From Candidatus Woesearchaeota archaeon (GTDB taxonomy: Archaea > Nanobdellota > Nanobdellia > Woesearchaeales > GW2011-AR9), in assembly GCA_016188115.1 (NCBI GenBank), contig JACPIK010000002.1, forward strand, positions 1,064,077 to 1,128,076: a stretch of 64,000 nt of DNA, given 5' to 3'. The notes beneath the pieces were generated by a model. The model had not been told where the DNA came from. It did not search any database and saw only the letters and a program-made list of their open reading frames with translations. Below, piece by piece: positions 6,496 through 26,452 of the stretch; position 1 is the stretch's first letter, and every line of letters starts with the position of its first letter. The position numbers and the translations under genes were made by a program.

Positions 6496-7812
6496 TTATT
6501 GTACTCTTTTTCTTAGCTCAACCATCGCTTCACCAATCATATACAACGACCCTGTCACAAGAACAAAGTCTCCTTGTTTAGCAAGAGCTTTCACAACAGC
6601 ATCCGTAACCACAGCAACTACTTCTACATCTTTACAATATTTCTGCACTAAAGGCAGGAGTTCTTGAGGATTGCGCGGCTTGTGATTTCCTTGTGTAAGA
6701 ATAACATGTTGAAAGTGAGGTATCAATAAAGGAATAATAGCTTCTTTTTCTGCATCATCACTCAACGCTAACAATAAAACACCATGTTGATATTTAATGG
6801 TCTTAAGGTACTGCAGTAGTACTTTGACACACGCTAAATTATGCGCTCCATCAATCAAAATGAACGGATTTTGTGAAATGACCTCAAGACGTCCTGGCCA
6901 ATAAGCCAGTTTCAAACCTTCTTCTATTGCTTTGGGAGTGATGTCCCATTCTTTTCGAGGTAACAACGATAACGCAGCCAGTGCAGTCGCAATATTGTCC
7001 AGTTGATGTGTTCCACGCATCTGTGTTAGAAATGTGCCATTAAACCCGCCACTCACTTTAAACATTTGTGAATCTAATGTTGAAGAGGCTGGATTGATAG
7101 TGACCCGCGATGATGTTTCATATAACACACTTCCTCGCTCCTTACAACGATCCGAGAAAACAGCAAGAACTGATTGATCTTTCTCAGCCGTCACAACAGG
7201 TACGCCTTCTTTGATAATGCCTGCTTTTTCGTGGGCAATTTTGACTTTAGAGTCGCCAAGAATTTTAGTATGCTCAAGATCAATATTAGTAATTACACTT
7301 ACTAATGGTCGGATCACATTTGTTGCATCAAGGCGACCCCCCATGCCGACTTCAATAATGGCAATGTCAACTTGCTCTCGTGCAAAATAAAGAAACGCTA
7401 ACGCAGTCGTAAATTCAAAATAAGTAATATCGATTTTTTCTTCTTCAACTTTTTGCCGTACTTCCCGAATGAGTAAAGCCAGATCCGAGTCAGAAATACG
7501 CACTCCATTAATTTGAATACGTTCATTGAATGTTACTAAATGAGGGCTGGTATTAAGACCGACCTTGTATCCTGCATGTTGGAGAATGGATGCAAGAAAT
7601 GCACAGGTACTACCTTTGCCATTCGTACCTGCGACATGAATAGAAGGAAAACGGCGGTAAGGATAGTTAAGTACCTCCATCAGCGCACGCATGCGTTCAA
7701 GACCAAATTTCATAGCTCCATGATCAAGGCTATAGAGATAGTCAAGTTCCGGACTGGACATGGGTAGTAGTGGGAGAAAGGTGTTTAAAAACGTATCTTT
7801 TAAAAGCTTCAA
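6496..7812 (-). CDS. folC: Folylpolyglutamate synthase/dihydrofolate synthase (FolC, Mur ligase family)
   Basis: 'IHVAGTNGKGSTCAFLASIL' P-loop, Mur-ligase middle and C domains, ~438 aa. Confidence 0.8.
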   Translation of the reverse strand: MKLLKDTFLNTFLPLLPMSSPELDYLYSLDHGAMKFGLERMRALMEVLNYPYRRFPSIHVAGTNGKGSTCAFLASILQHAGYKVGLNTSPHLVTFNERIQINGVRISDSDLALLIREVRQKVEEEKIDITYFEFTTALAFLYFAREQVDIAIIEVGMGGRLDATNVIRPLVSVITNIDLEHTKILGDSKVKIAHEKAGIIKEGVPVVTAEKDQSVLAVFSDRCKERGSVLYETSSRVTINPASSTLDSQMFKVSGGFNGTFLTQMRGTHQLDNIATALAALSLLPRKEWDITPKAIEEGLKLAYWPGRLEVISQNPFILIDGAHNLACVKVLLQYLKTIKYQHGVLLLALSDDAEKEAIIPLLIPHFQHVILTQGNHKPRNPQELLPLVQKYCKDVEVVAVVTDAVVKALAKQGDFVLVTGSLYMIGEAMVELRKRVQ

Positions 7813-7829
7813 ACATTCTAAATTATGGA

Positions 7830-8483
7830 ATGAAAAAAGTAGGGAAATCTATTGGCGAGGAGAAAAACTTAGATGAACAAGGATATGCGCTTGTTTGGAT
7901 GAGTGCGGGAAATAGTTATTTCAAAGAAGAGATCATTCAAAAAATTCTCAAATTTACTGCTGAGCATTTCCTCAAAACTATTGTAATAGCTCCTGATGAA
8001 CCAGCGCAACATACATTCAAAGCTTTGGGTTACGAGGGGAATGAGGTTTCGAAAAAAGCGAGATTGAATGCTAATCTACTCCAAAACAGGGCTAAACGCG
8101 TCATCACTTCAATGAAAGATAAATCAAAATTCCAAGTAATAGAATGGATTGAAGAAATAGCGCCTAATCTCTATTACCAAGAGAAATTGAAACAGATCAC
8201 ACTTCTTTATTCAAAAAATAGTCAATTTAGAAGTGATGCGAATGAAGTTACAAGAGAGGTATTAATGAGTAAATCAAATGAAGAGTTTACTGCGGATGCT
8301 GTTAATGAAGGTGTTTATTATCTTCTCAAAGAGCTCGCTTTTGTAATGGCAAGTCCTACAATCTTTAATACACAAAAAGTGACATACGTGTATCATAAAG
8401 AGTGGCCAATCTTTCAGAAATTGATAACAGGTGTTTATGATGGAAAGGTGAGGGGAAATCTAAGGTTTCTTTTGCATAGTTAG
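7830..8483 (+). CDS. Probable tRNA-dependent cyclodipeptide synthase (CDPS) homolog
   Basis: 'YALVWMSAGNSYF' matches the CDPS catalytic-Ser motif (AlbC 'ALIGISAGNSYF'). 'YYLLKELAF' gives Y-x3-E; 'YVYHKEWPI' matches the Tyr-His-...-P-I motif. Length ~218-237 aa. An alternative upstream start at 7770 overlaps the divergent folC start. Confidence 0.55.
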   Translation: MKKVGKSIGEEKNLDEQGYALVWMSAGNSYFKEEIIQKILKFTAEHFLKTIVIAPDEPAQHTFKALGYEGNEVSKKARLNANLLQNRAKRVITSMKDKSKFQVIEWIEEIAPNLYYQEKLKQITLLYSKNSQFRSDANEVTREVLMSKSNEEFTADAVNEGVYYLLKELAFVMASPTIFNTQKVTYVYHKEWPIFQKLITGVYDGKVRGNLRFLLHS

Positions 8484-8588
8484 AGAAATCAACTTGGATT
8501 CAATCGTTCTGATGAGAATATCCCTTCCAAACCCCAAATCTTAAAAAAGGGCAGACCACTCAATATAACAAAAAGAACAGCATAAAAG

Positions 8589-9527
8589 GTGAGTTTGATG
8601 CAGCAATATTGTGATCTTCTACGGTATGTACTCAAAAATGGTGTGGAAAAGAAGGACCGTACTGGCATTGGCACGAAAAGCATCTTTGGCTATCAAATGC
8701 GCTTTAATCTTGCTGAGGGTTTTCCTTTAGTCACTACCAAAAAAGTCTATATGAAAGGCATTATTCACGAACTCCTCTGGTTTCTCAAAGGTGAAACAAA
8801 CATACAATATTTGGTACAGAATGATGTCAAAATTTGGAATGAATGGGCATTTCAAATATATCTTGAAGAAAACAAATTAGAGCATCAGCATCCTCGCTAT
8901 TCTGAAGAATGGAAACAGATGCTTGAAAAGTTTGTCGAGAGAATTAAAACAGATGACGCATTTGCTAAACGCTGGGGAGAATTAGGACCAATCTACGGCA
9001 AGCAATGGACTCGCTGGGAAGGCCGTAATGGTGTGGAAATCAACCAAATCCAAAATGTCATAGATTTAATTAAAAAAGACCCAACGTCACGTCGCATTAT
9101 TGTCAGCGGTTGGAATGTCGGCGAAATTCAGGAGTTAATTCATCATCATCATCATGCTCCACCATCATGTCATACTATTTTTCAATTCATTGTTGTTGAT
9201 GGAAAATTATCCTGTCAATTATATCAACGCAGTGCGGATATTTTCTTAGGCGTTCCATTTAATATTGCCTCCTACGCCATGTTAACGATGATGATTGCGC
9301 AAGTCTGTGGACTAGAACCAGGAGAATTTATTCACACGTTTGGTGATGCACATATTTATTTGAATCACATGGAACAAGTCAGCGAGCAACTCTCCAGAGA
9401 ACCAAGATCACTACCTACACTAAAAATAAATCCCACAGTTAAAGATATTTTTTCGTTCCAATATAGTGATTTTGAGGTCATCAATTACAACCCTCATCCA
9501 CCAATTAAAGCAACGATTGCAGTCTAA
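8589..9527 (+). CDS. thyA: Thymidylate synthase ThyA
   Basis: '[19 protein letters not shown]', '[12 protein letters not shown]' catalytic Cys, '[26 protein letters not shown]'. Contains an internal penta-His run. Confidence 0.95.
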
Positions 9528-9547
9528 GCATCTCCGAATAATAAGGT

Positions 9548-10018
9548 TTGAAAATGGTTTCCATTATTGCCGCAATGACTAAAAATCAAGTTATTGGTCG
9601 TGCGAATCAGTTGCCTTGGTCGCTCCCTGAAGATTTACGTAATTTCAAACGCCTAACCACTGGTAACGTGGTAATTATGGGTCGTAAAACCTATGATTCT
9701 ATCGGTCGATCATTACCAAACCGACATAACATCGTGGTCAGTCGCAACACCGATCAGATACCAGGAGTTATAGTCTCTAAAAGCATCGAAGAGGCAATAG
9801 CAACAGCAAAAGAGTTTGGCAGAGAAATATTTGTGATTGGTGGTGCGCAGATTTACCAGCAAGCATTGCCGTATGCAACTAAACTCTATTTATCTTTAGT
9901 TAAACATGATCACGAAGGGGATACTTATTTTCCTCCATTCGACCTTAAAGAATGGCAAGAGGAAGAACGCCAAGATTATAGCGATTTCACTTTTGTGGTA
10001 TATATTCGCAATAGTTAG
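9548..10018 (+). CDS. folA: Dihydrofolate reductase
   Basis: 'VSIIAAMTKNQVIGRANQLPWSLPEDLRNFKRLTTGNVVIMGRKTYDSIG'. Confidence 0.9.
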   Translation: MKMVSIIAAMTKNQVIGRANQLPWSLPEDLRNFKRLTTGNVVIMGRKTYDSIGRSLPNRHNIVVSRNTDQIPGVIVSKSIEEAIATAKEFGREIFVIGGAQIYQQALPYATKLYLSLVKHDHEGDTYFPPFDLKEWQEEERQDYSDFTFVVYIRNS

Positions 10019-10142
10019 TTGCGATGCTTAGGGGTAGGATATATAGTCGCCAGAACTGAAAAGTATAAAAGCGCAAGAGATGAATAAAAAGTAATTAATG
10101 AGTTAACAAAACTCCATAAAAAAGGGAAAAAGAGGGATAAAA

Positions 10143-11495
10143 GTGTCAGACGATTTATCGAAAACAGATCCGCATGTAGCGCATATCATTGCACTTGAAG
10201 AACAGCGTCAGCAAGATAAACTTTCGATGATCCCGTCTGAAAATTTCTTTTCTAAAGCGGTACGGCAAGCAATCGGTTCCGTATTAATGCACAAGTATGC
10301 TGAAGGTAACGTAAAAAAAAGGTACTATGAAGGCAACCAATACATCGATGAACTCGAATCACTTACCATTGAACGCGCCAAAAAATTGTTTCGTTGTCCT
10401 CCTGATTGGAGTGCAAATGTCCAAGCTTTAGCTGGGAGTAACGCTAATCTTGCAGTGTATCTTGCTCTTCTCGAAGTTGGTGACACGATGATGGGGATGT
10501 ATTTACCTGATGGTGGACATCTTTCTCATGGATGGAGTCACGAGCCAAAAGGTGCCCCTGATGCATCAATTTTAGTCTATGAAGGTGGCAGTGCAAAAGT
10601 TAACATTTCTTCTAAAATTTTTAAAACAGTCCAATACAAAACATCACCAGCAACACAACAATTTGATTACGAAGAAGTTGAAAGAATTGCGTTGCAGTAC
10701 AAACCAAAACTTCTCATTACAGGCGGAACCGCGTATCCTCGCGAAATCGATTATCGTCGCATGAAAGCCATCGCCAATAAAGTTGGTGCATATTACATGG
10801 CAGATATTGCGCATGAGGCTGGTCTTATTGCCGCAGGCGTAAATTCCTCTCCTGTTGGTATAGCCGATGTTGTTACTATGACTACACACAAGACATTGCG
10901 TGCAGGACGTGGAGCAATCATTCTTGGTCATGAAGATATTATCAAAAAAATTAATCGTGCTGTTCTTCCTGGTCTTCAAGGCGGACCATTCAATAATAAT
11001 ATTGCAGGCATCTGCGTCGGCTTAGGTGAAGCATTGGAATATTCTTTCACTATCTATGCTTGGCAAGTTGTACGTAATGCGCAATTTTTATGCAAAGAGT
11101 TAGAAAAATATGGATTTAAAATCGTAAGTGGCGGAACCGATAAACATCTCGTACTCATTGATTTAACTAACAAACCTGTGCTGGGAAAGAAATTTGCCCG
11201 AGCTTTGGATTATGCCGGCATCGTCGCTAATTATAACACCATGCCGCAAGAAACGCGTCCTCCTGCCGATCCTTCTGCATTACGGATGGGAACTCCTTGG
11301 ATTACCACGCGGGGCATGAAAGAACCGGAAATGGCGCACATTGCTGCGTGGATAAATCGTGTTATGGAAATCTGCGCTCCTTGGGCAGAGTTAGACTTCA
11401 AAGAATTTGAACAAAATGTCGCATCATCATTCGAGATCATGCAAATAGCAGCAGAAATCAAAGAATTATGCGGAAAATTTCCACTGGATTTTTAG
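10143..11495 (+). CDS. glyA: Serine hydroxymethyltransferase
   Basis: 'MIPSENFFS', PLP-lysine region 'VVTMTTHKTLRAGRGAIIL'. GTG start at 10143. Confidence 0.95.
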   Translation: MSDDLSKTDPHVAHIIALEEQRQQDKLSMIPSENFFSKAVRQAIGSVLMHKYAEGNVKKRYYEGNQYIDELESLTIERAKKLFRCPPDWSANVQALAGSNANLAVYLALLEVGDTMMGMYLPDGGHLSHGWSHEPKGAPDASILVYEGGSAKVNISSKIFKTVQYKTSPATQQFDYEEVERIALQYKPKLLITGGTAYPREIDYRRMKAIANKVGAYYMADIAHEAGLIAAGVNSSPVGIADVVTMTTHKTLRAGRGAIILGHEDIIKKINRAVLPGLQGGPFNNNIAGICVGLGEALEYSFTIYAWQVVRNAQFLCKELEKYGFKIVSGGTDKHLVLIDLTNKPVLGKKFARALDYAGIVANYNTMPQETRPPADPSALRMGTPWITTRGMKEPEMAHIAAWINRVMEICAPWAELDFKEFEQNVASSFEIMQIAAEIKELCGKFPLDF

Positions 11496-11524
11496 AATTG
11501 TATCAATGTAGAGATGGTGTATAA

Positions 11525-12403
11525 ATGGGATTAGTTGCAATTATTGGTGGTTCTGGTGTTGAAGATAGCCCCTCGCTTGAAGGCGCAGTATGGAATAAAT
11601 TTGATACTGGCTATGCTAGTGGTCTTGATCATCATACTGGTGTAGTATGGTATAAGAAAAAAGATGAAGTTATTTTTATTCCCCGACACGGAGGGCACCC
11701 TCAAGAAAATCCACGTTTTGGTCCTGCAAAAACCCAATACGCAGCAAATCTCATTGCCGCACATGCTCTCGGTGCGCGTGTCGTTGTTGCGACCAGTGCC
11801 GTAGGCAGTTTGCATGGCGAGAGAATAGGTGTTGGTAGTCTCGTCATTCCTGATGATTATATCGATCAATCAGGACGCAGTGATAATCTCTTTGGTGAGG
11901 GAATTGTAGTTCATAATAATCCTATTCCTGCATTTTCTGTGCAACTCCGTAGTATTCTTATTCATCATGCGCAAGAAAAAGAAGAGAAATTTAATGGGAT
12001 TCACACAGCAGGAACATATCTTGTTATCCCTGGCGATCGTTTTGGTACAAAAGCAGAAGGATTACGCCGTGCTCAGTATGCAGATATTGTAGGGATGACA
12101 ATCTGTCCAGAAGCATCCTTCGCTCAACAACTAGGTTTACATTATGCTGTAGTGGCGTTTCCCGTTGATGTAAATCTTGATGCAAATCACGAAGGTGGGA
12201 CAATAGAAGTTATGAAAAGAATGTCTGTTGCTGATAAGGTTCCTGATTATGTTTCACGCGTCGTAAACGAAGCTTGCAACACTCAATTTGGTCTTGTGGA
12301 TGGGCTCAAGGGAAATATTATCCCTGGAAATACAGCTCGAATCTCAAATAGGTATCTTCGTGCTGCAGCGGATGAGTTGGTACAAATATATTGTAGAAAG
12401 TAG
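11525..12403 (+). CDS. 5'-methylthioadenosine/purine nucleoside phosphorylase (PNP/MTAP family)
   Basis: 'VAIIGGSGVEDSP', 'IPRHGGHPQ', 'VVATSAVGSL', 'VGMTICPEASFAQQLGLHYAVVAFPVD'. Confidence 0.8.
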   Translation: MGLVAIIGGSGVEDSPSLEGAVWNKFDTGYASGLDHHTGVVWYKKKDEVIFIPRHGGHPQENPRFGPAKTQYAANLIAAHALGARVVVATSAVGSLHGERIGVGSLVIPDDYIDQSGRSDNLFGEGIVVHNNPIPAFSVQLRSILIHHAQEKEEKFNGIHTAGTYLVIPGDRFGTKAEGLRRAQYADIVGMTICPEASFAQQLGLHYAVVAFPVDVNLDANHEGGTIEVMKRMSVADKVPDYVSRVVNEACNTQFGLVDGLKGNIIPGNTARISNRYLRAAADELVQIYCRK

Positions 12404-24871: not shown

Positions 24872-26452
24872 ATGGTTAATCTGGCGTTACTAGAAGAAAT
24901 TGGACTCACAAAAGCGGAAGCAAAAGTATATCTAGCTCTCTTAGAGTTAGGTTCTTGTTCAACAGGAAAGATTGTGGAGAAGTCAAAAGCATCATCGTCT
25001 AAGATTTACGAAATTCTGGAGAAATTGATGCAGAAAGGATTAGTGAGTTTTGTCGTCAAATCGGGAGTAAAATATTTTGAAGCTGCACCACCACGACGTA
25101 TTTTGGATTATATGGGGGAGAAAAAGAAAGAACTTGAAGAGAAGACAAGGGATGTTCAAAAGATGCTTCCAGAGCTTGAACTGGCTCAAAAACTGTCTAA
25201 ACATAAATCCGAAGCCACTATCTTTAAAGGTCTCAAAGGTGTTCAGACTGCCTATGAAGATATTCTTAAAACGCTTAAAGCAGGAGATGAATATTATGTT
25301 GTGGGTGGGATGAATCCCCATAAAGCCTATTTTTCATTTGTTGAGCAGTTTCAACGACGCCGTGCCGCGAGAGGTATCAAAGTTAAATTATTGTATTCAG
25401 AGCCGGCGAAGAGTTTGGCCCAAGCAATTGAGAAACTTCCTAAGACAGAGATTAAATTTACTCCAAATCAGTTTTTGTTTTCTTGTTTTGTGTTGATGTA
25501 TAAAACTAAAACATTGATCGTTGTTGCTGCCAAAGAAGACTTGACTCTATTTCAAATCGATAACAAAGATGTAACTGATTCGTTTATTGCGCAGTTTGAG
25601 TTGTTGTGGAATCAAGATGCCCAATCATACAAAGGATTTGATGCTACCGTTGCCCAGTTTGAGAATATGATCTCTGAACTTCGAGCTGGTGAGGAATACT
25701 GCGTCTTGGGCGCATCACTTCATTTAGGCGGCGAGAGATTAAAAAAATGGTTAGTCGATTTTCATCAAAGACGAATTGAGAAAGGGGTGAAAGCGAAATT
25801 ATTATCTACCGTGGAGTCACGCGATGGGATTATCCAGAATGTTCGTAACGCTGGCGATCCAAATTTTCATCTTTCTCAAGTCCGTACACTTGCTCCGGGC
25901 ATGAATGCGCCGTTTCAGGTTAATCTCTTTCGCAATAAAGTGGTGATTACTCTTTGGGATGAGATGCGCTGTTTTGTCATAGAATCACAAAAGCTTAAAG
26001 ATAATTTTCAAAACTATTTCGAGACCCTATGGAATCAAAAAATTCGTACGTTCGAAGGCATTGAACAAACCACATCGTTCTTCACAAACATTCTCAACGA
26101 CCTCCAAGCTGGAGAAGAATATTTTGTTCTTAACGGAAACTATGGAAAAAATAAGAAACTAGGTGAATTTTTCAAATCATACCACCAGCAGCGTCATAAG
26201 AAAGGCATCAAAGCAAATCTTTTGTTTAATCAGAATGTTAAATCAATTGCAAAGGATCTTGCTCTATCTCCTTGTGAAGTCAAGTTTCTTCCTCCAGAAT
26301 TTCAATCACCATTGCAAGTTACATTCTACAAAAATAAACTCTATATCTCTATCTGGTCAGAGAATCCTATTGGTTTTCTTATTGAACAGAAAGGTATGGT
26401 CGAAGCGTTTAAAGCCTATTTTGATTTACTTTGGAATCAAAAAGGAAAATAA
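24872..26452 (+). CDS. TrmB-family transcriptional regulator with triplicated C-terminal domain
   Basis: N-terminal wHTH 'KAEAKVYLALLELGSCSTGKIVEKSKASSSKIYEILEKL', then three ~130-aa repeats each with 'L(K/R/Q)AGxEY' and ending 'LWNQ'. Confidence 0.65.
   Translation: MVNLALLEEIGLTKAEAKVYLALLELGSCSTGKIVEKSKASSSKIYEILEKLMQKGLVSFVVKSGVKYFEAAPPRRILDYMGEKKKELEEKTRDVQKMLPELELAQKLSKHKSEATIFKGLKGVQTAYEDILKTLKAGDEYYVVGGMNPHKAYFSFVEQFQRRRAARGIKVKLLYSEPAKSLAQAIEKLPKTEIKFTPNQFLFSCFVLMYKTKTLIVVAAKEDLTLFQIDNKDVTDSFIAQFELLWNQDAQSYKGFDATVAQFENMISELRAGEEYCVLGASLHLGGERLKKWLVDFHQRRIEKGVKAKLLSTVESRDGIIQNVRNAGDPNFHLSQVRTLAPGMNAPFQVNLFRNKVVITLWDEMRCFVIESQKLKDNFQNYFETLWNQKIRTFEGIEQTTSFFTNILNDLQAGEEYFVLNGNYGKNKKLGEFFKSYHQQRHKKGIKANLLFNQNVKSIAKDLALSPCEVKFLPPEFQSPLQVTFYKNKLYISIWSENPIGFLIEQKGMVEAFKAYFDLLWNQKGK

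Follow-up and report, generated by a model that had tools for sequence, protein, structure and literature searches.

In the 64,000-nucleotide stretch of Candidatus Woesearchaeota DNA analysed here (the window) is a gene for a tRNA-dependent cyclodipeptide synthase (CDPS) of 217 residues. Upstream of it, and divergent, is folC, and downstream on the same strand are thyA, folA and glyA. This arrangement, described in an earlier, sequence-only reading of the DNA, is confirmed by the Pfam families of the genes called on the identical public contig. The protein carries the complete catalytic set of the NYH subfamily of CDPSs, and its first substrate pocket has a tryptophan where the characterised NYH-type enzymes have glycine. 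A 100% identical protein of 217 residues is already named tRNA-dependent cyclodipeptide synthase at NCBI, and the identification itself is not new, having been auto-annotated in public databases. What is new here is the uncharacterised DPANN clade to which the enzyme belongs, the tryptophan in its pocket, the incidental character of its folate setting and the lack of tailoring genes within about 10 kb.

The protein matches the Pfam CDPS family PF16715 at 113.2 bits (cut-off 27, E=1.9e-32), with residues 15-203 aligned to profile positions 15-205 of 220, and the NCBIfam model TIGR04539 (tRNA-dependent cyclodipeptide synthase) at 133.7 bits (cut-off 45, E=6.8e-39). No competing Pfam family was found, the sole other match being RNase Z at E=0.08. 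Among PDB sequences, phmmer returned CDPSs only, with AlbC the best (E=1.8e-12), followed by Shae-CDPS, YvmC, BtCDPS, a Parcubacteria CDPS and Rv2275. The AlphaFold2 model built on 51 homologues (predicted local distance difference test (pLDDT) score of 91.1 and predicted template-modelling (pTM) score of 0.86) is a single Rossmann-like domain, similar to those of class-Ic aminoacyl-tRNA synthetases (aaRSs), and superposes on CDPS structures. The top 50 Foldseek matches in the PDB are all CDPSs (template-modelling (TM) score up to 0.82, probability 1.00), those of the NYH subfamily scoring 0.77-0.82 against 0.61-0.74 for those of the XYP subfamily (5MLP, 5OCD, 5MLQ, 7QAT, 6Y4B). Neither the HIGH nor the KMSKS signature of class-I aaRSs is present in the 217-residue sequence, and no aaRS family in Pfam matches it. 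The sequence-only reading had called a CDPS on the strength of three short motifs and had named a family-profile search and a structural comparison as checks; with both profile scores far above their curated cut-offs, no better rival family and a model that matches CDPS crystal structures only, the call holds.

Residues were mapped in a MAFFT multiple alignment with AlbC numbering, comprising 51 homologues that are 37-70% identical to the window protein. AlbC residues S37, N40, Y178, E182, Y202 and H203 correspond to S25, N28, Y164, E168, Y188 and H189, and all six are invariant in the 51 sequences; as the set includes the N40-Y202-H203 triad, the protein is a CDPS of the NYH subfamily. The motifs from which the CDPS call had been made, and whose serine, Tyr-x3-Glu and Tyr-His elements align as proposed, all occur in the translation: ALVWMSAGNSYF at residues 20-31, YYLLKELAF at 163-171 and YVYHKEWPI at 186-194. 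Within the first, M24, S25, N28 and F31 are invariant, and L21 and W23 occupy positions 33 and 35 of P1, the pocket for the first aminoacyl side chain. In the second, A170 stands at AlbC P184 and F171 at P1 position 185; the AlbC equivalents of its tyrosine and glutamate, Y178 and E182, bind the substrate amino group, according to mutagenesis (PMC3105412). The third contributes Y186 to P1 (position 200) and K190, W192 and P193 to P2, the pocket for the second side chain (positions 204, 206 and 207). Five of the nine basic positions mutated in AlbC are also basic here (K75, R78, R87, K89 and R90, for AlbC R87, K90, R99, R101 and R102); K76 is invariant and R90 at least 90% conserved among the homologues.

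Table 1. Features of the CDPS locus and its neighbours, in window coordinates
Feature	Position	Strand	Basis or remark
folC, FolC-type folylpolyglutamate synthase (Mur_ligase_M/FOL3_C)	6496-7761	-	Pfam; divergent upstream
Divergent spacer, folC start (ATG 7761-7759, minus strand) to CDPS start	7762..7829	.	68 bp
A/T-rich TATA-like box TTTAAAAA	7784-7791		In spacer; read from sequence
A/T-rich TATA-like box TTTTAAAA	7798-7805		In spacer; read from sequence
CDPS coding sequence	7830..8483	+	ATG start, 217 aa plus stop; NYH-type tRNA-dependent cyclodipeptide synthase
Strand beta1 and catalytic loop ALVWMSAGNSYF	7887..7922	+	Alignment to AlbC
S25, acyl-enzyme serine (AlbC S37)	7902-7904	+	Alignment to AlbC
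N28 (AlbC N40)	7911-7913	+	Alignment to AlbC
Helix motif YYLLKELAF: Y164 (AlbC Y178), E168 (AlbC E182)	8316..8342	+	Alignment; both invariant
Motif YVYHKEWPI: Y188 (AlbC Y202), H189 (AlbC H203)	8385..8411	+	Alignment; Y188, H189 and W192 invariant
thyA, thymidylate synthase (Thymidylat_synt)	8598-9527	+	Pfam
folA, dihydrofolate reductase (DHFR_1)	9554-10018	+	Pfam
glyA, serine hydroxymethyltransferase (SHMT)	10143-11495	+	Pfam; followed by methylthioadenosine (MTA)/purine nucleoside phosphorylase

The P1 pocket comprises AlbC positions 33, 35, 65, 67, 119, 185, 186 and 200, and the P2 pocket positions 152, 155, 156, 159, 204, 206 and 207 (Gondry et al. 2018, PMC5816076). In the window protein they read LWIPWFVY and VEVSKWP. 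The alignment returns the published Kerfeldbacteria motif (VGLAWFLY / TAVGKWT) exactly, which validates the mapping, and it overrules a pairwise phmmer placement of I107 at position 119, where W106 stands. Gly35 and Pro184 are among the six conserved pocket residues of AlbC; G35 lines the buried pocket (Sauguet et al., PMC3105412), and the G35A variant is poorly active (PMC3105412). Both are replaced here, by W23 and A170. The earlier match of ALVWMSAGNSYF to ALIGISAGNSYF was right as to the catalytic-serine pocket, but the likeness hides the tryptophan at this family-conserved position. Neither residue is absolute in the family, as position 35 is A, P, L, F, I or V in many XYP enzymes that are active, and Ala occupies position 184 in 129 of 148 representatives of the clade formed by DPANN archaea and the candidate phyla radiation (CPR). 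In the AlphaFold2 model strand beta1 spans residues 19-23; because positions 33, 35 and 37 share one face of this strand and all line the AlbC pocket, the side chain of Trp23 should project into P1. The pockets also speak on the name cyclodityrosine synthase, which JGI gives to some homologues and which we rejected: the protein reaches 52 bits with the NF052540 equivalog model, whose cut-off is 300, and LWIPWFVY and VEVSKWP are unlike the motifs VG[IV]TMLFN / L..[..]QLP of enzymes making cYY (cXY denotes the cyclodipeptide of residues X and Y).

Within the archaeal clade are two subgroups, one with Gly or Ala at position 35 (motif IVGMSPGN) and one, monophyletic and including the window protein, with Trp35 (motif L[IV]WMSAGN). 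W23 is present in 41 of the 47 sequences that have this column, and 12 further Trp35 clusters are found among the top 150 representatives at 50% identity. Across the 41 Trp35 sequences P1 is Leu at position 33 (35 sequences), Trp at 35 (41), Met (21) or Leu (15) at 65, Pro at 67 (41), Trp at 119 (38), Phe at 185 (39), Val at 186 (33) and Tyr at 200 (41). In P2, four of the seven positions vary freely, T152, V156 and W206 being conserved. That P1 is kept while P2 varies indicates purifying selection on a working pocket, and the near-invariance of P1 among proteins only 42-70% identical overall points to an active enzyme whose first substrate is fixed.

The gene probably begins at ATG 7830, where the identical proteins in NCBI and Logan are also annotated to start. 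Use of the in-frame GTG at 7770 instead would extend it to 7770-8483 (237 aa) and leave 8 bp to the folC start; residues 1-13 are the sole disordered part of the AlphaFold2 model, and the N-terminus varies among homologues. On these grounds ATG 7830 is preferred and the GTG start ruled out. The length range of 218-237 aa given earlier is right at its upper end, for the GTG start, and one residue too long at its lower end. The spacer shared with folC contains two TATA-like boxes, and the centre of each is about 26-28 nt away from one of the divergent start codons. Such spacing is expected for archaeal TATA boxes with leaderless transcripts, and the boxes are putative archaeal promoters for leaderless or near-leaderless transcripts. 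The GC content of the gene is 35.2% against a mean of 39.1% for the window, and its third-position GC content (GC3) is 30.7%, with neighbours at 25-36%; with GC slightly low and GC3 normal, composition gives no clear sign of recent acquisition.

Flanking the CDPS are genes for an archaeal histone, aIF5A, TBP and MCM, and NCBI labels the identical protein, found on a 1.47-Mb contig, as Candidatus Woesearchaeota; from the flanking genes and this label, the host is a DPANN archaeon. No cyclodipeptide oxidase, cytochrome P450, methyltransferase, prenyltransferase or 2-oxoglutarate-dependent oxygenase gene was found by Pfam from about 10 kb upstream to about 10 kb downstream of the CDPS, and typical tailoring genes are likewise missing near the CDPS in six related archaeal loci. 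The description of the gene as embedded in a folate block is true of the present genome; it lacks functional support, and the block does not recur at 80 other loci, none of which has a folC, thyA, folA, glyA or MTA phosphorylase homologue within 8-10 kb of its CDPS. The closest relatives lie in unrelated gene surroundings. As the setting is not repeated at related loci, the folate neighbourhood appears to be a genome-specific accident with no pathway link.

The sole recurrent neighbours of the CDPS across related loci are transcription factors. Directly upstream of the CDPS in eight archaeal loci, and divergent from it, is a tandem Lrp/AsnC protein of about 340 aa, in which two HTH_24/HTH_AsnC modules are combined with an AsnC ligand-binding domain (all on the minus strand: L006 6892-7908, L008 6865-7890, L014 6785-7819, L017 228-1250, L018 3057-4082, L019 6829-7866, L021 3184-4248 and L032 4538-5578). 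These loci belong mostly to the Gly35 subgroup and include one Trp35 locus, and the position of the regulator suggests amino-acid-responsive control of the CDPS. Adjoining the CDPS in the two closest relatives (L003, L009) is a 245-aa TrmB-family protein. A 526-aa protein encoded at 24872-26452 (+) in the window has an N-terminal TrmB domain with 35% identity over about 245 aa to these two regulators and, lying 17 kb from the CDPS, is probably a non-specific paralogue. The tandem Lrp/AsnC protein, the SBP_bac_3 domain of the bacterial relatives described below and the unknown genes downstream of the CDPS in relatives are all absent from the 64-kb window, as are tRNA genes and Rfam families at gathering score.

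Among the single occurrences, a 337-aa class-II aaRS catalytic core (PF00152, E=6.6e-50) is encoded directly downstream of the CDPS in a metagenome-assembled genome (MAG) of Aenigmatarchaeota (L010 8726-9739, +); by its length it seems to be without an anticodon-binding domain, and may be an AsnA-like protein or aaRS paralogue, possibly tied to the CDPS substrate. Divergent from the CDPS on an 875-kb archaeal contig with P0033 is a Trp/Tyr-type amino-acid permease (PF03222; L004 8654-9790, -). The folate genes of the window form a compact, bacterial-style folate/thymidylate set (FolC, ThyA, dihydrofolate reductase and SHMT, then the nucleoside phosphorylase; 6496-12403), which is notable in a DPANN lineage, usually described as metabolically reduced. 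In ThyA, five consecutive histidines immediately precede the catalytic Cys motif, which is unusual for a thymidylate synthase.

A word-indexed search returned 52 clusters (90% identity), every one of which has the CDPS Pfam domain; those with names come from records of Nanoarchaeota, Woesearchaeota or 'archaeon'. In a profile search of 1.84 billion cluster representatives, 1,090 clusters are CDPS-like at E<=1e-3 and 174 at E<=1e-30, and a scan of one genome per GTDB species gave 74 loci. DPANN MAGs come closest in that scan, with 40-64% identity (Nanoarchaeota, Woesearchaeota, Aenigmatarchaeota and Micrarchaeota; about 20 DPANN species representatives). The next tier, at 33-41%, is made up of CPR/Patescibacteria (Saccharibacteria, Paceibacteria, Peribacteria, Nomurabacteria, Andersenbacteria, Kerfeldbacteria and others) together with Dependentiae, Bdellovibrionota and Obscuribacterales/Melainabacteria; an AlbC-like enzyme of Streptomyces, at 23%, is much more remote. 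In a crude neighbour-joining tree without bootstrap the DPANN clade stands apart from the bacterial one, its sister clade being found in CPR and predatory bacteria. The sequence-only reading regarded an archaeal, tailoring-free CDPS as unusual. That is fair to the literature, in which the 2017 census has a single archaeal CDPS, AQS34941 of the XYP subfamily (Gondry et al. 2018), and our searches for Woesearchaeota, DPANN, Nanoarchaeota and CPR yielded, within the searchable literature, no study of CDPSs from DPANN archaea; it is not fair to the DPANN sequence data, where such enzymes recur.

Many members of the bacterial clade are 440-510 aa long and consist of a CDPS and a C-terminal SBP_bac_3 domain of about 250 aa (PF00497, E=1.7e-19). 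The fusion occurs in CPR/Patescibacteria, Obscuribacterales, Bdellovibrionota and some Proteobacteria (L024 7986-9368, L026, L029, L036, L043, L062, L064 and about 35 other bacterial loci; also L072 3081-4517). Inspection by eye shows no N-terminal signal sequence, and the domain, which Gondry et al. 2018 (PMC5816076) term only an 'ABC transporter-domain', may serve in ligand sensing or substrate delivery. The sole fusion labelled 'Woesearchaeota', L072, falls inside the bacterial clade, which suggests transfer or mis-binning. Elsewhere in the same super-clade, 11 representatives at 50% identity have Cys at the catalytic Ser (P0067, P0069, P0128, P0134, P0146, P0154, P0160, P0161, P0165, P0169 and P0199), mostly with Tyr for His203 and Pro or Ala at position 35. 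In a further 35 representatives Tyr178 is replaced by Phe, a substitution that leaves AlbC almost inactive.

Taken together, we read the window gene, with a probability of about 0.8, as encoding a functional, stand-alone NYH-type CDPS of a DPANN archaeon, with a fixed and probably small P1 substrate, an unmodified product and an accidental folate setting. Ping-pong catalysis is expected from the CDPS family (PMC3105412; PMC5935735). The gene would be transcribed from its own promoter, and the enzyme would bind a first aminoacyl-tRNA through a basic helix (K75, K76, R78, R87, K89 and R90), by analogy with AlbC, YvmC and Rv2275, and move the aminoacyl group to Ser25, its side chain lying in P1 and its amino group held by Tyr164 and Glu168. 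A second aminoacyl-tRNA, with its side chain in P2, would then give a dipeptidyl-enzyme, from which intramolecular cyclisation assisted by Tyr188 would free the 2,5-diketopiperazine. As no tailoring gene is nearby, this product most likely leaves unmodified.

For the first residue (P1) we tentatively favour Gly, Ala or Pro, a call that we put slightly below even odds. A small residue is predicted because AlbC G35A is poorly active, G35 lies in a buried pocket and enzymes without Gly35 mostly take a small P1 residue. The characterised cases include an F35 enzyme making cGE, L35 enzymes making cAA/cAP, cAG and cPP, P35 enzymes making cGG and cPP, an A35 enzyme making cAE and an I35 enzyme making cAP (Gondry et al. 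2018); none with Trp at position 35 appears in the parts of the tables of that paper available to us. A product call from the pocket motif was tried and rejected: the P67/W119 pair occurs, in the same source, in enzymes making cPX, cLV, cFI and cWL, and does not discriminate. The exact product is not predictable from the pocket, and the variable P2 leaves the second residue open.

Several points tell against this picture. The small-P1 precedents have exceptions (P35 with cYY, V35 with cFN, I35 with cYV), and all these non-Gly35 precedents belong to the XYP subfamily, the window protein being of the NYH type. The CPR members of the DPANN/CPR clade are listed by Gondry et al. 2018 as unclassified NYH with no product. 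With G35W and P184A, two of the six conserved residues are changed, and the enzyme may have little activity or catalyse another reaction. The orientation predicted for Trp23 follows from strand periodicity. Finally, tailoring enzymes could lie elsewhere in the 1.47-Mb genome, 64 kb of which was examined.

Different chemistry on a CDPS fold, such as aminoacyl transfer to another acceptor or hydrolysis (deacylation) of a specific aminoacyl-tRNA, would accommodate a tryptophan that fills P1 at Gly35, the alanine at 184 and the poor activity of AlbC G35A, as well as the absence of tailoring or export genes nearby and the fusion of CPR relatives to a cytoplasmic SBP_bac_3 domain, which is not a classical secondary-metabolite architecture. 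We nevertheless consider it improbable: Ser37, Tyr178, Glu182 and Tyr202 are invariant, the last being needed for dipeptide cyclisation only; conserved T152, V156 and W206 in P2 imply that a second substrate site is kept; and cyclodipeptide synthesis is proven for XYP CDPSs that have F, L or P at position 35. Intactness speaks in the same way on whether the gene is a decaying, functionless remnant of horizontal transfer. The family is patchy, common to DPANN archaea and CPR or predatory bacteria, its context differs in every genome, and the gene is slightly poorer in GC than the window; but the open reading frame is intact with a full catalytic set, P1 is near-invariant over 41 diverged homologues, GC3 equals that of the neighbours, the AlphaFold2 model is confident and the identical protein comes from independent assemblies. 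There is very little chance, in our estimate, that decay explains the gene.

The neighbourhood itself raises the possibility that the CDPS is the first enzyme of a folate/one-carbon pathway, acting for example through Gly-tRNA or Ser-tRNA pools tied to SHMT and co-transcribed with thyA. It is adjacent to thyA-folA-glyA on the same strand, with a 114-bp gap and no run of at least five T after the CDPS stop, and a small P1 substrate such as glycine would loosely fit SHMT chemistry. The lack of this arrangement at the 80 other loci extends to the closest relatives, at 64-65% identity (L003 and the GTDB locus L009, which encodes P0006), and a TATA-like AATATAA before thyA (~8563-8571) makes a separate promoter plausible; we know of no biochemical link between CDPSs and folate, and regard this explanation as highly improbable.

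The functional CDPS preferred here belongs to an ordinary enzyme class and is not a new kind of system; it is the P1 pocket of its DPANN-specific subclade that departs from the family rule at Gly35. Since both the class of enzyme and its mechanism are well established and the auto-annotation is correct, the value lies in the subclade and not in the identification. The searchable literature holds no characterised CDPS from archaea or from the DPANN/CPR clade, and a protein of 217 aa offers a test case for whether CDPSs work on archaeal tRNAs. The selectivity of a natural Gly35-to-Trp pocket bears on the specificity rules used in genome mining and enzyme engineering, and the distribution raises the question of why archaea and bacteria that depend on a host and have reduced genomes retain a stand-alone diketopiperazine synthase. 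One speculative answer, which we hold to be rather unlikely as a whole, is that the Trp35 subclade is a DPANN-specific lineage with a specificity new among NYH enzymes, its P1 narrowed for Gly, Ala or Pro from archaeal tRNAs, and that the unmodified diketopiperazine serves an episymbiont as a diffusible signal or effector to its host and not as the precursor of a tailored antibiotic. A shared function in small-cell symbionts under amino-acid-responsive control would fit the sharing of the clade with CPR, Bdellovibrionota and Dependentiae, the SBP_bac_3 fusions and the tandem Lrp/AsnC pairing.

Among known systems, the window protein has the same fold as AlbC, the cFL synthase of Streptomyces noursei (3OQV), YvmC (3OQH), Shae-CDPS (6EZ3), BtCDPS (7AZU) and Rv2275 (2X9Q), with TM scores of 0.77-0.82. 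With AlbC and other NYH CDPSs it shares the family hidden Markov model, the catalytic S37/Y178/E182/Y202, the N40/Y202/H203 signature and the size of a single domain of about 220-240 aa, but it is only about 20-25% identical to them and has an archaeal host. Its P1 is LWIPWFVY where that of AlbC is LGVVLLFL, with Trp for Gly35, and Ala replaces Pro184. Unlike AlbC-type NYH systems, the gene has no adjacent cyclodipeptide oxidase or P450 tailoring gene.

The nearest non-archaeal relatives, at 33-41% identity and likewise uncharacterised, are the unclassified NYH CDPSs of CPR bacteria (Kerfeldbacteria OGY85379, Moranbacteria OGI43181, Andersenbacteria OGY31047 and Ryanbacteria OGZ44804, as given in the tables of Gondry et al. 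2018). They share with the window protein MS[AP]GNSYF, KA(R/K)LN.N.L, Ala184 and the P1 residues W119, F185 and Y200 (VGLAWFLY or LGMPWFIY), but keep Gly35, and many carry the C-terminal SBP_bac_3 domain of about 250 aa, whereas the window protein has Trp35 and no fused domain. AQS34941 ('uncultured archaeon') is, like the window protein, archaeal, metagenomic and uncharacterised; unlike the NYH-type window protein, it is, according to the same source, an XYP enzyme with P1 FGLVWILH and groups with Parcubacteria XYP enzymes. CDPS 87 of Legionella lansingensis, a cGE synthase in those tables, is also an XYP enzyme, distantly related and with Phe rather than Trp at position 35; with F35 in LFVAWIVI and Trp119, it provides a precedent for a narrowed, glycine-accepting P1.

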